Source: Terriglobia bacterium (GTDB lineage: Bacteria > Acidobacteriota > Terriglobia > Terriglobales > Acidobacteriaceae). From it: 64,000 nt of DNA. The notes below the pieces were generated by a model, which saw only the letters and a program-made list of their open reading frames with translations, searched no databases and was not told where the DNA came from. The stretch is from assembly GCA_963765715.1 (NCBI GenBank), contig CAVXXN010000004.1:342373-406372 (forward strand), in the 5' to 3' direction. The position numbers and the translations under genes were made by a program. Positions 38,843-42,190 of the stretch are shown piece by piece (positions within the stretch are counted from its first letter, which is position 1; each line of letters opens with the position of its first letter).

Positions 38843-38918
38843 GGGGCTATAGCTCAGCTGGGAGAGCGCGTCGTTCGCAACGACGAGGCCGTCGGTTCGA
38901 TCCCGACTAGCTCCACCA
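38843..38918 (+). tRNA. tRNA-Ala (anticodon CGC)
   Basis: Cloverleaf folded by hand: acceptor ggggcta/tagctcc with G3:U70, anticodon stem cgtcg/cgacg, loop ttCGCaa, T-arm gtcgg-ttcgatc-ccgac, encoded CCA. Confidence 0.95.
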
Positions 38919-38919
38919 A
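38895..38919 (+). repeat. attL-like direct repeat (tRNA-Ala 3-prime end)
   Basis: gttcgatcccgactagctccaccaa, identical to 42166-42190. Confidence 0.85.
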
Positions 38920-38985
38920 ATAAATCCCAAAAAAAGTGGCAGTCTACGACGGATACACAACGAAATGTAACCAAATCCTGCCCAT

Positions 38986-39201
38986 GTGGGTACAATGCAA
39001 GGCCGCAGTCTGTCGAAAGAAACGACAGAACAGTCGAAGACACTTTTTCAAAAGCAGCTTCTTCCCTGGGCGAAGCACCGTGGCCTAAATCGGTTGCGCG
39101 ATCTAACATCGGCCGAGCTGGTCGATTTCCGGGCTACATGGAAGAACAATGGTCTAACGGCGAACCGCAAACTCTCGCGTCTAGGCTCGACCTGGTTCTG
39201 A
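38986..39201 (+). pseudogene. tyrosine integrase, N-terminal fragment only
   Basis: LLPWAKHRGLNRLRDLTSAELVDFRATWKNNGLTANRKLSRL resembles the SAM-like N-terminal domain of phage integrases. No catalytic domain follows. Confidence 0.5.
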
Positions 39202-39597
39202 CCGTTGCGCATGTGCTTCACAATCTCGCGCTCGGCAGCGATGGTCTTGACGGTTGTGAGGAGTTGCGCTGTCTAATGCGCGCTCTGTTGGACACTGACA
39301 AATTCGCCGGATCTTTGGCGGCATGCCAGACTGTCGCGAACCTCGGCGTATCTGATCTCGCCCATACCACGACGGAGCGAGTCCCGGACCAAGAGTCGCT
39401 CATCGACGACGGCCTCGCGCTCAAAGTTTTTGTCATCCGCGAAAGTGACAGCTTCATTGACGCGTTGTGTGGAATCGATTCTCGGCGCCAGCCGTTCGAC
39501 GCGTTGCCGTGCGGCCCTGACAACCGCTTCAGGCTGATTTCCGAAGTCTGCTGCGGGTCGGCGATGAGCGACTAGGACCTCCCGTGGGGACAGGATC
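39195..39597 (-). pseudogene. conjugative relaxase (TrwC/TraI-type) internal fragment, frameshifted
   Basis: Absent from the ORF track because it has no start codon. Hand translation gives AVVRAARQRVERLAPRIDSTQRVNEAVTFADDKNFEREAVVDERLLVRDSLRRGMGEIRYAEV, then in another frame LLTTVKTIAAEREIVKHMRNGQNQVEP. Confidence 0.5.
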
Positions 39598-39602
39598 GTG
39601 CG

Positions 39603-40221
39603 TTAGATTTGCTTGCCAAGAATCAGGGGCACATAGCTTCGGGCGTCTTGCAGCAATTGCTCGCGCGCAATACCGGCCTTGGCGCGAAGTTGCAAACCCT
39701 TCATCAAGTCAACGAGCGCACGGCCTCGCACCTTGGCAGAGGGTGTGCGAGTCAGGCGCCCCGCCTTCATCTCCTGCTCGAAACGTTTCGCGAAAATATC
39801 AGCAGCTGCGGTGAGGCCCTTCGCGAGACAGGAACGGATCTCCGTTACTCGCTCCGACTGTCCCAGCGCCGCGGCGACCATCATGCAACCGCCGCGAGCC
39901 TCACCCGAAGCGAGTGTTGACGGTAGCCTCGCAAAAGGCGGTCACGGCCTTGTGGATGTCCGGCTCCGCTTGAAACGCTGCCATTATGGGAGCTCCATAC
40001 GTCATCGCATAGCGCTCGACCGCCTTGAGCAGCAGGGTGGACTTGTCTCCGAAGGCTCGGTATAGCGCGGGTTTGGTGACGTTCACGGCCTGTGCGATCC
40101 GATCTACGTCGACTCCTTCATACCCATGCTCCCAAAACATCTCAACGGCACGGTCGAGTGCTTCGTCGGGGATAAAGCCTTTTGGACGTCCTCGGGCGCG
40201 CTTCGAAATATTAGTTACCAT
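39603..40221 (-). CDS. TetR/AcrR family regulator, one frame disruption near 39890
   Basis: RGRPKGFIPDEALDRAVEMFWEHGYEGVDVDRIAQAVNVTKPALYRAFGDK. The C-terminus continues in ORF 39603-39884. Confidence 0.8.
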
Positions 40222-40364
40222 TGCGTACGAAACTCCTTGCATTGCAGCTGTGATTATCGTACTCTCGCGTATGTAATACTTCAAGACAGATAAACACAGG
40301 AGACAACATGGATAGGTTCAAAGGAAAAACAGCACGACCTTCACCCTTCACCACGGAGACGCCC

Positions 40365-41340
40365 ATGGAACATTCGATCGCGCTCGTCACCGGCACCACC
40401 TCCGGGCTCGGTTATGCGGCAGCCCGCCTGCTCGCCACAGAGGGCTGGCGCGAGATCATCGTCACCGGGCGCAGCCTGGCCCGGGTCCAGGAAACGGCCG
40501 CTCAACTCGCGGCTGAGACCAAAACACAGGTCTTCACGCCGCTGGAGCTGGATCTGAACGCGCCGGCCAGCGTTCAATCCGCCCTCGCCGAGCTGGTCAA
40601 GCGAGGTCGGCCGATCGATTTCCTGCTGCTCAATGCCGGGATTGGTCCCAAGCAAGAAGCGCGTGATCACTGCGGCGGGCGTCGAGGCGTCTCAGGCCCC
40701 GCTGATCGGCCATCATCAACTGACTGTCGGGTTGCTTCGCGCCAACCTGCTGAGCCCCAACGCGCGGATTGTTATCGCCGGCGCGGAGCCTGCCCGCGGG
40801 GGCGTACCCATGTTCAAGTACACCGACGTGCCAGCCTTCGCGGCCAAATACCACCGGGGTGACCGAACCGCCGCTGTGGAAGCCCTGATTCGCAACGGGC
40901 CGAACGTGAAGTACGTGCCCAACAATGCGTATGCCGACGCGAAGCTCATCATCGCTTGGTGGGCCGCGGCGCTGGCGCGCCGGCTACCCTCCGGCATGGC
41001 CGTGTACGCTGTCTCGCCCGGTGGGGCGACCGACACCAAGGTGGTGCGAAACGCTGGCCCGTTGTTGAAGTATCTGTTTATCCCAATCGTGAACCTCATT
41101 CCCGGCATGAATCAGACGCCGGAGACCGCGGCCCGTCGGTACCTCCAGGCGTCGGAGTTCGGAACCGACGTCTCAGGGCAATTCTTCGCCTCGGCTCAAG
41201 GGAAGTTCTCGGGCCCAATTGAGGCGCAGCGCCACCCACACCTCCACGATCGCGCCAGCCAGGAAGCCGCGTGGCAGGCCGTCGTCAAGGTCTCCGGCGT
41301 CGACTTGTCTCACCCAGCATCCTTGACCGCGGTGTCCTGA
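40365..41340 (+). CDS. SDR family oxidoreductase, one +1 frame disruption near 40650
   Basis: IALVTGTTSGLGYAAA and LLLNAGI. The second frame carries NNAYADAK (YxxxK). Divergent from the TetR gene. Confidence 0.8.
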
Positions 41341-41442
41341 GGAGCTGATCGGCGCGCAACAGTATGCCAAAGAACATCGCCACCTCGCTAACTTGAATCA
41401 CGGCGACAGAATGAATAACAACCAATCATCAGGAGAATAAAC

Positions 41443-41600
41443 ATGAAACGGTACGAAGGTAAAAAGGCATTGCCATGGTCCCCATGAGGCGCTGGGGGAC
41501 GTCGGAGGAAATCGCGAAGGCCGTCCTCTTCCTTGCCTTTGATGCGACCTCCACGACCGGCGCCGAGCTTACGGTCGACGGAGGATGGTCTCAACTCTAA
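41443..41600 (+). pseudogene. SDR remnant with internal deletion
   Basis: aggaga RBS then [10 protein letters not shown], fused out of frame to a C-terminal tail [39 protein letters not shown]. Confidence 0.7.
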
Positions 41601-41676
41601 GGTGTGGACCTCGCTTGATGAGTGACCGATGAGTATCTGCGCGAGATGCAGGCCGGTAAAAGGGGGGACTAGAAAG

Positions 41677-41883
41677 ATGCACAACTTAGTAGTGAGCTGT
41701 TTGGCGGTTGCTTATCTCGCGGCGAATGTATACGCCATCGTGAAGGTAGGAGCGTTTGAGTTAGCCCGCTCGCGCAAGCACCTCCTACTCTATGGCGTCC
41801 CCTTCATATTGTGGGGTTCTCTCATTCTGTTGGGATGCAAGCTCATGGAGATCATGCGCCGATTCGATGAATGGGCCGCCTGA
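41677..41883 (+). CDS. small two-helix membrane protein, hypothetical
   Basis: MHNLVVSCLAVAYLAANVYAIV...LLLYGVPFILWGSLILLGC. Confidence 0.4.
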   Translation: MHNLVVSCLAVAYLAANVYAIVKVGAFELARSRKHLLLYGVPFILWGSLILLGCKLMEIMRRFDEWAA

Positions 41884-42165
41884 CCAGGCGTCCCCAATTG
41901 AAGAAAACAGGCCGAGTGACTTCATTGAAGACCTCGCTAACGATTGGTCCCGAAAAACGCGCTTGTGTTGACTGATCGGGCGAACTTCCGGACTGTCGGA
42001 AAACTTGGAAGTTAGAACAATTGCGGTTTGACGGGCCTGGAGTGCTTCAAGTGCGAAGCAAGTGACTGTACCCAAAATGTACCCAAGAGTCGGTCACGTT
42101 GCCTTTGTTGGCCTTTTGGGCTGCATAAGAATCAATAACTTAAATTCTATCAACAGGGCTGAATA

Positions 42166-42190
42166 GTTCGATCCCGACTAGCTCCACCAA
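42166..42190 (+). repeat. attR-like direct repeat
   Basis: gttcgatcccgactagctccaccaa, with no tRNA body upstream of it. Confidence 0.85.

Follow-up and report, generated by a model that had tools for sequence, protein, structure and literature searches.

What is the DNA that separates an intact tRNA-Ala gene from a second copy of its own 3' end about 3.3 kb downstream, and what does it retain of the agent that placed it there? The locus lies in a 64,000-nt stretch of a contig from an Acidobacteriaceae MAG (hereafter the window), and the first-pass annotation, made from this sequence, had described it as a mobile element that lost all of its mobility functions and kept both of its att sites. 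From the analysis below, window 38920-42190 is very probably the deletion-decayed remnant of an ICE whose family uses a tyrosine integrase to target the 3' end of tRNA-Ala(CGC). The features of the locus are as follows, each with the evidence by which it was assigned.

38843-38918, + strand: tRNA-Ala(CGC), intact, the integration target (ARAGORN)
38895-38919, + strand: attL core, 25-nt direct repeat identical to the tRNA 3' end (exact copy of 42166-42190)
38920-38997, + strand: left arm, 78 nt, with GTACCC-type repeats (alignment to intact relatives)
38998-39182, + strand: tyrosine integrase gene, an internal piece covering codons ~87-147 of ~404 (homology to full-length integrases)
39184-39597, − strand: TrwC/MOBF relaxase-helicase gene, a mid-gene piece covering residues ~286-423 of ~907 (six-frame homology)
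39603-40284, − strand: TetR/AcrR regulator gene, the first cargo gene, split in 39901-40284 and 39603-39884 (PF00440, homologues)
40365-41340, + strand: SDR1, short-chain dehydrogenase gene of ~325 aa, divergent from TetR (PF00106, homologues)
41444-41600, + strand: SDR2 remnant, in which its first ~8 codons are fused to the last ~42 (C-terminal tail of PF13561)
41629-41883, + strand: 84-aa membrane ORF, intact, the last cargo gene (conservation)
41909-41922, + strand: GCCGAGTGACTTCA, a degenerate version of the 13-nt motif GCCAATGCACTCA (motif comparison)
41942-42165, + strand: right arm, with two intact GTACCC repeats at 42068 and 42079 (identity to L046 and G068)
42166-42190, + strand: attR core, the second copy of the 25-nt repeat, without a tRNA body (exact repeat)
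42191-42282, + strand: native 3' flank of the tRNA, shifted away by the insertion (homology to relatives)

The tRNA target, the repeat and the element arms

The tRNA-Ala(CGC) is the sole tRNA that ARAGORN called in the window, and its ribA/TonB-like surroundings also occur in relatives of the genus. The 25-nt repeat GTTCGATCCCGACTAGCTCCACCAA is exact at 38895-38919 and 42166-42190, as had been noticed in the first-pass annotation, and no third copy exists in the window with up to three mismatches allowed; 100 shuffles gave 0 matches (chance expectation 0). Across the whole 4.8-Mb genome, a 24-mer of the repeat has two exact copies, which are the two att cores, plus one copy with two mismatches on another contig. 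With only two exact copies genome-wide, the repeat is not dispersed, and the dispersed repeat family that the annotation had named as a possible refutation of its reading is not what the genome contains.

The annotation had also proposed a search for an empty site in related genomes, and such sites were found in the genus relatives G019, G010 and G006, where the homologue of 42191-~42280 lies directly 3' of the tRNA; a homologue of 42191-42282 also lies 3' of attR in G013 and G021. At the empty site of G019, window 42166-42242 matches with 88% identity over 78 nt that overlap the tRNA end (BLAST, E=2e-20). This local match is better evidence for the empty site than the global alignment of the joined site, which gave 62% vs 50% for the control and discriminates weakly because the homology fades after ~55-90 nt.

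Both arms match elements that occupy the same tRNA in other Acidobacteriaceae MAGs, namely a 49-kb ICE and a smaller element of 5.25 kb whose integrase is intact, and they are absent from the empty sites, implying that they are not generic tRNA-flank sequence. Window 38843-38997 is 89-93% identical to the tRNA and arm of L046, L047, L048, L049, L054 and L066; three of the four GTACCC-type repeat copies of the intact relatives are mutated in the window. The right arm shares 78% identity with the L046 element's right end (10637-10880), and the same value was obtained for window 42067-42190 against the right end of G068's 49-kb ICE. This homology of both arms to integrated elements corroborates the attL/attR signature that had been claimed from the repeat. 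Integration copied the final 25 nt of the tRNA to give attL and attR, and the 78-nt left arm and ~125-225-nt right arm are those of the ICE family.

The proposed search for intact relatives of the integrase and relaxase was also productive. Integrase relatives with 79-93% aa identity to the surviving piece were found at 22 loci in about 20 Acidobacteriaceae MAGs; ARAGORN places tRNA-Ala(CGC) ~80 nt upstream of the integrase in 16 of these, and one more keeps the tRNA 3' end. Counted where they are neither broken nor ended by a contig edge, the integrase frames have 384-439 codons, and they run away from the tRNA. The family has an att core of 25-26 nt, and its att-bounded elements measure 5.25 kb (G066), 49 kb (G068) and 111 kb (G070). 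The G068 element (MFD05377.bin.1.149) is a full ICE with a complete conjugation module, carrying a tyrosine integrase, a VirB/Trb-type (MPF-T-like) T4SS with VirB4, VirB6, VirB9, VirB10 and VirB11, the TrwB coupling protein and a MOBF (TrwC) relaxase. It shares with the remnant the att core, the homologous arms and an integrase that is 81% identical over the surviving piece, and its relaxase is of the same Pfam architecture; the remnant differs in keeping <1 kb of backbone, in having no T4SS and in the inverted orientation of its relaxase piece. A published description of an acidobacterial tRNA-Ala(CGC) ICE family was not found in the literature searched.

No other member of the genus carries an integrase of the tRNA-Ala(CGC) type, implying that the element came from outside the genus. 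In a genus-wide search with the integrase piece, the matches listed had 28-40% identity over the surviving fragment (35-40% for the five best), and each of the nine best loci that were inspected adjoins a tmRNA or has one within ~0.3 kb. These tmRNA (ssrA) integrase genes resemble the tRNA-Ala(CGC) type in starting just past the RNA gene and reading away from it, but their target is the tmRNA, whose 3' end differs from that of the tRNA-Ala, and they are far more distant from the piece than the tRNA-Ala(CGC) integrases of other genera. We considered a tmRNA-type integrase that had strayed to the tRNA-Ala and dropped this idea in view of the relatives of 79-93% identity at tRNA-Ala(CGC) in other genera.

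Remains of the integrase and relaxase genes

The first-pass annotation had described the integrase piece as a 72-aa N-terminal fragment. It matches codons ~87-147 of integrases of ~404 aa and is therefore internal, with 79-93% aa and 88-92% nt identity to the full-length integrases beside tRNA-Ala(CGC). The homology is collinear, running through the tRNA and left arm and continuing with integrase codons 87-147 after a clean 289-nt gap. This deletion, at 38997/38998, has taken the integrase start and the first ~86 codons, and at the junction 39182/39184 the catalytic half is gone, with everything after codon ~147 missing. Neither the integrase piece nor the relaxase piece has a Pfam match, and both were identified by six-frame searches of relatives. 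Full-length integrase relatives carry Phage_int_M at residues 76-169 and PF00589 at residues 211-355; the window's piece aligns solely to the central, core-binding part, and the PF00589 catalytic domain with its R-H-R-Y residues is absent. A second integrase of the same type was found nowhere else in the genome. The element has thus lost the start of its integrase to an internal deletion and the remainder at a second junction.

The annotation had correctly placed a reverse-oriented relaxase fragment against the integrase piece. This TrwC-type piece (39184-39597, − strand) has 414 nt with one in-frame TAG, adjoins the integrase piece directly and is inverted relative to it; at the aa level it is 75% identical to L074 and 52% identical to the G068 ICE relaxase. 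Its position is between the TrwC and helicase domains, which Pfam places at 12-302 (TrwC) and 439-625 (AAA_30) in the full-length relative L038. The piece aligns downstream of the TrwC domain (12-302), and the PF08751 relaxase domain with its histidine triad and catalytic tyrosines is absent. Apart from the integrase piece, this inverted mid-gene segment is the only part of the backbone to have survived.

The annotation's statement that mobility functions were lost while both att sites were kept thus agrees with our results, since the integrase and relaxase are reduced to fragments. Its picture of deletion-driven decay holds in part: there are deletions at the integrase and SDR2, but the relaxase and integrase run the same way in G068, the sole complete ICE examined, so the structure may call for more than deletions, and the orientation of the relaxase piece needs either an inversion or a differently laid-out ancestor. 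The further statement that this fossil island dates an insertion has to be withdrawn, as nothing in the analysis dates it.

The cargo module

The cargo makes up about 2.3 of the 3.3 kb. Its TetR gene encodes an HTH domain in the N-terminal half (PF00440, E=7e-14), and, compared with intact homologues of 226-234 aa (89-97% aa identity), a single additional base near 39913 interrupts the frame. SDR1 has PF00106 in its N-terminal part (E=1e-16) with the motif TGTTSGLG (Rossmann TGxxxGxG) and is split by one extra base within 40638-40643, as judged against intact homologues of 324-334 aa and from an alignment to G001, G003 and G023. The annotation had called both genes of this divergent pair frameshifted, and one extra base is indeed present in each, but these two 1-nt frameshifts may be long-read assembly errors, which we consider about as probable as genuine mutation. 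The internal deletion that it had seen in a further SDR gene is borne out: SDR2 has lost ~595 nt near 41468-41473, its flanks (window 41431-41467 and 41474-41610) match L017 at 11721-11757 and 12353-12490, and the intact gene in L145 encodes 247 aa. The small membrane ORF, also pointed out there, is intact and conserved, with 78-91% aa identity in G001 and G003, and is present at many cargo-module loci.

Of the 80 related loci retrieved, some 60 carry the module at 85-97% nt identity, in several phyla and in unrelated contexts; the species-level genomes that it has reached number at least 80, from Terriglobia, Thermoanaerobaculia and Eremiobacterota, and its flanks are unique in almost every genome. 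SDR1 in addition matches proteobacterial plasmids at 85-87% nt identity, where it lies beside a TetR gene and a second SDR gene and is named in RefSeq as an SDR family NAD(P)-dependent oxidoreductase. The cargo is thus probably passenger DNA, a module that circulates separately from the element. At its TetR end, the conserved end past the stop codon is missing and homology begins at 39598; this truncation against the relaxase piece implies that the module sat in the element before the last deletions. The annotation had held that finding the same 3.3 kb at non-tRNA loci without repeats would count against its reading. The cargo part does occur in that way, but the element-specific ends are not present at the non-tRNA cargo-module loci, and the decayed-element reading is therefore not refuted. 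Most cargo loci are not at tRNA genes, and those near one adjoin various different tRNAs: a tRNA lies within 16 kb of the module in about 12 of 60 loci, no more than expected by chance, and within ~0.6 kb in six (L081, L090, L115, L129, L133 and L140).

The motif GCCAATGCACTCA, with up to one mismatch, stands at the TetR end of the module in 23 of the 80 loci, and about 8 have it in inverted orientation at the opposite end; the window has lost one of the two copies by deletion and keeps the second in degenerate form. The cargo (window 39598-41913) might be a discrete, recombinase-less mobile unit bounded by inverted GCCAATGCACTCA and moved by a recombinase acting in trans, a tentative idea that we consider rather less probable than its opposite; if true, it would explain the 85-97% nt identity with a different context in each genome. 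Mobile insertion cassettes (MICs) are transposase-less passenger units bounded by inverted repeats. The cargo module resembles them in having no recombinase inside and, in a subset of loci, the inverted 13-nt motif at both ends, but differs in that its termini are not exactly defined and no target-site duplication was seen around it in L088, L100 and L145. An empty-site search around the G001 copy matched a repeated 3.2-kb element instead. The motif also adjoins IS110- and IS1182-family genes in other places and so might mark an insertion hot spot instead of a transposon terminus. Further out, a second inverted motif flanking the module (GATTAGTACCGAcAAGTCGGCTTGT-like) was too degenerate to score; it is unique in the window's genome and thus not a REP-like host repeat. 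The cargo, as a small regulator/oxidoreductase module near-unchanged across many soil phyla, is the more interesting by-product of the analysis.

Class of the remnant and competing histories

CIMEs (cis-mobilisable elements) are defined as elements that keep attL and attR and have lost the genes for integration and transfer; they are decayed ICE or IME derivatives, known from the ICESt1/ICESt3 family and other streptococcal elements and covered by ICEberg 2.0 (PMC5704250, PMC6323972). Judged by its sequence, the remnant appears to fit this structural definition. Its att sites are an exact 25-nt repeat with arms homologous to intact elements; its integrase has no catalytic domain, and the genome offers no other of that type; the 414-nt relaxase piece is all that is left for transfer, the att sites enclosing neither T4SS genes nor a coupling-protein gene; and elements with intact integrases, one of them a full ICE, occupy the same site. 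A functional ICE has an intact integrase, relaxase, coupling protein and T4SS, of which the remnant holds fragments only. It would therefore be unable to excise or transfer by itself and could at best move with an integrase supplied by a related element; with the left-arm repeats mutated, even such helper-driven movement is doubtful.

As in streptococcal CIMEs, att sites and cargo are retained, integration and transfer genes are deleted, and the insertion point is the 3' end of a conserved gene, one that intact relatives use as well. Unlike the known CIMEs, it resides in an Acidobacteriaceae MAG, has tRNA-Ala(CGC) as its target, retains recognisable scraps of integrase and relaxase, has mutated left-arm repeats and has no accretion partner. 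The main finding is in this sense ordinary, a decayed ICE at a tRNA gene being a well-known outcome; the remnant shows for each junction in turn how such an element is worn away, and it anchors a tRNA-Ala(CGC)-specific ICE family in soil and peat Acidobacteriaceae.

Decay in place is one route to this structure. The remnant could instead have arrived already gutted, as a CIME in cis with an adjacent helper ICE (accretion) that has since departed or been deleted. In streptococci, CIME-ICE tandems are documented to transfer (PMC5704250), tandem arrays exist at the same tRNA in relatives (three tRNA-3' copies in G006, islands in G013 and G021), and the absence of this integrase type from the rest of the genus agrees with such an arrival. 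However, a helper has left no trace, neither a third att copy in the window nor a second integrase of the same type in the genome, and we consider this history improbable, although in-place decay would give the same final structure and the data do not separate the two. The block to the right of the element (42282-51650) is also non-syntenic with relatives, and no degenerate third att copy bounding it was found; the history of the locus is more complex than a single insertion.

It is very unlikely that the junctions and frameshifts are long-read assembly artefacts (chimeric joins and consensus errors) and that the true island is larger and less broken. The junctions rest on a single MAG assembly, and exact-junction scans of metagenome contigs gave 0 matches, that is, no independent assembly of the same structure. 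The genome is in 15 contigs and 84.7% complete, the window has other broken genes (DUF993 at 45145-46090, an amidohydrolase at 49583-51107), many related MAG contigs end just past the tRNA-Ala(CGC) integrase, and uncompensated 1-nt indels in the cargo occur in about 10 of 70 long-read bins vs 0 of 10 short-read assemblies. Against this, rpoB and rpoC (8.7 kb) show no interruption, each of the three backbone junctions is clean, with both sides aligning well to real elements, and gaps of 289 nt and ~595 nt far exceed the size of consensus errors, so that an artefact is plausible for the two 1-nt frameshifts but not for the overall architecture.

That another agent, a prophage remnant or the cargo module itself, made the insertion, with the integrase and relaxase scraps as unrelated debris, is hardly credible: the module does lie about 0.6 kb or less from a tRNA gene in several genomes and a second integrase family uses the same tRNA, but the cargo is mostly at non-tRNA sites, integrases of the second type point toward the tRNA and leave repeats of 49-61 nt, and in its arms, att core length and integrase position and orientation the island agrees with the family whose integrases are 79-93% identical, a homology of tRNA, arm and integrase that has already largely refuted this explanation. 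The islands of G013 and G021 belong to this second integrase type, and tRNA-Ala(CGC) is thereby shown to be a hot spot for two types of integrase.

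The tRNA-Ala(CGC) insertion

The first-pass annotation proposed that a decayed integrative element, retaining both att sites but no mobility functions, lies at the tRNA-Ala gene. The features of this locus needed here are the following.

38843-38918: tRNA-Ala(CGC), the sole tRNA of the window (ARAGORN)
39184-39597, minus strand: piece of a TrwC-type relaxase-helicase, residues ~286-423
42282-51650: block of genes for an MFS transporter, an OYE-type flavoenzyme, DUF993, GH39, an aspartyl protease-like product and an amidohydrolase

The perfect 25-nt direct repeat that had been claimed, GTTCGATCCCGACTAGCTCCACCAA, comprises the last 24 nt of the tRNA and the next A (38895-38919) and recurs exactly at 42166-42190. 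No third copy was found in the window at ≤3 mismatches, and none occurred in 100 shuffles. Across all 15 contigs of the 4.8-Mb assembly, in which the window is C4:342373-406372, the 24-mer has two exact copies, one at each island end, and one additional copy with 2 mismatches on a different contig. The repeat is real and non-random, and belongs to no dispersed family.

The G+C content of the island (38920-42190) is 0.61-0.65, versus about 0.52-0.58 in the flanks. When 40 relatives were searched at the DNA level, the flank left of the island, with GTP cyclohydrolase II, a TonB-like gene and the tRNA, was ~70-76% identical across the genus. In three relatives (G019, G010 and G006) the homologue of 42191-~42280 directly follows the tRNA, and because the tRNA there runs straight into this homologue, 38920-42165 is an insertion relative to these genomes, which thus provide the empty sites that the annotation had proposed to look for. 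The match of G019 to window 42166-42242, which overlaps the tRNA end, is 88% over 78 nt (E=2e-20), and G019 shares the first 14 nt past the repeat, GTTTTCAATCACTT, without a mismatch. An unrelated island in G013 has these 14 nt after its distal repeat as well. When the joined empty site was aligned globally, the gain was modest (62% vs 50% for the control), since homology of the flank declines beyond 55-90 nt. Metagenome contigs scanned for the exact junctions of the remnant gave no match.

The genes after the tRNA in G010 and G015 correspond to window 51652 onward (a nucleoside transporter at 51652-52926 and beyond), and therefore the 9.4 kb of 42282-51650 is also non-syntenic. Its first 3.8 kb (MFS, OYE-like, DUF993) is located elsewhere in G015 and G019, and no att copy bounding the block was found. 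Across the genus, the tRNA-to-transporter interval ranges from 1.1 to 16 kb. A second integrase type of 420-424 aa, reading toward the tRNA, is present at the same tRNA in G013 and G021 (loci L023 and L022), in islands of 7-11 kb flanked by 49-61-nt repeats. Given the variable interval and this second integrase type, tRNA-Ala(CGC) is a general hot spot. The G006 locus (L021) contains three tRNA-3' copies within 13 kb.

Integrase and relaxase pieces, and the intact elements

Pfam gave no match in the integrase piece or the relaxase piece. Within the genus, the integrase piece has relatives at only 28-40% identity; the nine best loci (L028-L036) encode tyrosine recombinases of ~390-440 aa, located directly downstream of a tmRNA or at most ~0.3 kb from one; in eight of them the tmRNA lies immediately upstream with the gene reading away, and ARAGORN found no tmRNA in L028. 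One genome, G017, carries two tmRNA-type integrase genes 11 kb apart on one contig. The genome studied here has no other integrase of the same type as the piece. A species-representative genome collection yielded 22 loci at 79-93% amino acid identity, in Acidobacteriaceae, Sulfotelmatobacter and Terriglobales MAGs. ARAGORN placed tRNA-Ala(CGC) ~80 nt upstream in 16 of these 22 loci, and one more keeps the tRNA 3' end; the integrase frames have 384-439 codons unless broken or cut by a contig end, and read away from the tRNA.

Window 38843-38997, that is, the tRNA and a 78-nt left arm, is 89-93% identical to six of the fetched loci (L046, L047, L048, L049, L054 and L066). From 38997/39001 to 39182, where the integrase homology ends, the window corresponds to L046 5998-6179, codons ~87-147 of a 404-aa integrase, and the 289 nt between left arm and integrase piece (31 nt of leader and the first 86 codons) are cleanly absent. 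In full-length relatives, Phage_int_M spans residues 76-169 and the catalytic domain PF00589 residues 211-355. The fragment, which had been described as a 72-aa integrase N-terminus, is therefore internal, because the alignment falls in the central core-binding domain.

The reverse-oriented relaxase fragment reported next to it was recovered as the TrwC-type piece, which contains one in-frame TAG. Its identity is 56% with a 907-aa protein of G007 (Pfam: TrwC 12-302, AAA_30 439-625, and UvrD_C_2), 75% with L074 and 52% with the relaxase of an element in G068. The piece runs opposite to the integrase, but the two genes share one direction in G068; this orientation requires an inversion or an ancestor of another layout.

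Intact relatives of the integrase and relaxase, for which a search had been suggested, do exist at the same tRNA. The att-core search covered five of the genomes with related integrases, and second core copies were found downstream of the tRNA at 5.25 kb (G066, L046), 49 kb (G068, L057) and 111 kb (G070, L069). The 49-kb G068 element (L077-L079, G068:C2:532000-584000) encodes an integrase, a TrwB coupling protein, a 909-aa TrwC relaxase and, for the T4SS, VirB4 (two ORFs), VirB9/CagX, VirB10/TrbI, VirB6/TrbL and a VirB11-type ATPase; judged on its gene content, it is a complete integrative conjugative element (ICE). Its adjacent ORFs at 14933-17271 look, from their sequence alone, like an IS21 istA/istB pair. 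The L046 and G068 elements share the window's right arm: at 78% identity, 41942-42190 aligns with L046 10637-10880, and 42067-42190 with the right end of the G068 ICE. A GTACCC tandem pair (TGTACCCAAAATGTACCCA) lies ~95 nt from the core in all three right arms (window, L046 and G068), and intact left arms have four GTACCC copies in both orientations, three of which are mutated in the window. These repeats are putative arm-type binding sites.

In sum, the island is an insertion at the tRNA, both of its ends are homologous to the ICE family, and all functional mobility genes have been lost, so the proposed decayed element with two att sites is supported by the empty sites as well as by the arm homology. 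We infer that the remnant cannot move by itself. It is a remnant of an ICE that resembles a cis-mobilisable element (CIME), which is a known kind. Our literature search found no published description of this acidobacterial tRNA-Ala(CGC) ICE family, the make-up of which is conventional.

Cargo genes and their frameshifts

The cargo genes had been described as a frameshifted TetR and SDR, an SDR with an internal deletion and a small membrane ORF, and all of these were seen. TetR has a TetR_N domain, and one extra base near 39913 divides it into 39901-40284 and 39603-39884; SDR1, with an adh_short N-terminus, is split by one extra base within 40638-40643; a ~595-nt deletion has left SDR2 with ~8 codons of its N-terminus and ~42 of its C-terminus; and the 84-aa membrane ORF is intact. 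Intact versions elsewhere have 226-234 aa (TetR), 324-334 aa (SDR1), 247 aa (SDR2) and 84 aa (membrane ORF).

The window frameshifts could be real mutations or consensus errors, and we regard the two as equally probable. In this genome rpoB and rpoC (8.7 kb) are uninterrupted, and neither of the two extra bases is in a long homopolymer. With its 15 contigs the assembly reaches a completeness of only 84.7%, two other genes of the window, DUF993 (45145-46090) and the amidohydrolase (49583-51107), are split into two frames each, and the related MAGs are mostly long-read bins. The 80 cargo loci come from 70 long-read bins, about 10 of which show uncompensated internal 1-nt indels, and from 10 short-read assemblies, none of which does. 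The large deletions are unaffected by this doubt. In G023:C2 (L017, 9800-11560), neighbouring TetR and SDR1 genes each have a 1-nt indel relative to G001 and G003, reflecting parallel decay or, alternatively, the kind of assembly error considered here.

Spread and ends of the cargo module

The widely shared cargo module, window 39598-41913, is a more interesting item than the remnant itself. This cargo also occurs apart from the element: in G023, G001 and G003, whose core genes are only ~71-76% identical to those of this genome, the SDR1-SDR2-membrane block has 91-97% identity and lies at non-tRNA loci adjoining a different TetR. Relatives of the window TetR number 275 in the genome collection, the 80 best being 89-97% identical at the amino acid level, and window 39598-41345 aligns at 85-97% nucleotide identity in ~60 of these 80 loci (L080-L159), from Acidobacteriaceae, other Terriglobia, Bryobacterales, Thermoanaerobaculia and one Eremiobacterota MAG (466-kb contig). 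Plasmids of Paraburkholderia, Ralstonia and Methylovirgula carry matches to SDR1 at 85-87% nucleotide identity, and therefore these SDR genes have been exchanged between Acidobacteriota and Pseudomonadota; in the two plasmids whose annotation was consulted, NZ_AP023177.1 (L160, Paraburkholderia) and NZ_CP149575.1 (L161, Methylovirgula), SDR1 adjoins an annotated TetR/AcrR and a second SDR.

Hardly any loci share the same module flanks (of 114 flanking ORFs, 102 are singletons), and the module contains no recombinase. A 13-nt motif, GCCAATGCACTCA, has an outer edge at which homology between loci mostly stops; the motif is found ~40-50 nt past the TetR stop in 23 of 80 loci (≤1 mismatch), inverted past the membrane-ORF stop in a subset of loci, and once in 607 kb of control loci. 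In the window, the module begins 5 nt past the TetR stop, directly against the relaxase piece, and since the TetR-side end is missing, this junction is also a deletion; the other end is a degenerate motif at 41909-41922. The motif also brackets units with Pfam-confirmed IS110-family transposase genes (L162 14205-17767, L115 1408-5184) and directly abuts IS1182-like ends (L163 ~2961, L100 ~1849, L158). The motif may serve as a transposon end, as a site of recombination or as a hot spot for insertion. No target-site duplication was seen around the module, and a search around the G001 copy found no empty site.

Internally, the module is a mosaic. In many of its copies (L081, L083, L084, L087, L090, L096 and others), a duplicated ~185 nt from the TetR 5' end and intergenic promoter region (window 40151-40335) stand after SDR1 and before a different gene. 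Beside the module in G001:C10 (L016) lies a 3.2-kb stretch with 86-95% copies in G006, G023, G056, G009, G048 and G062, and further partial or more divergent copies in G001; it is probably an active insertion element.
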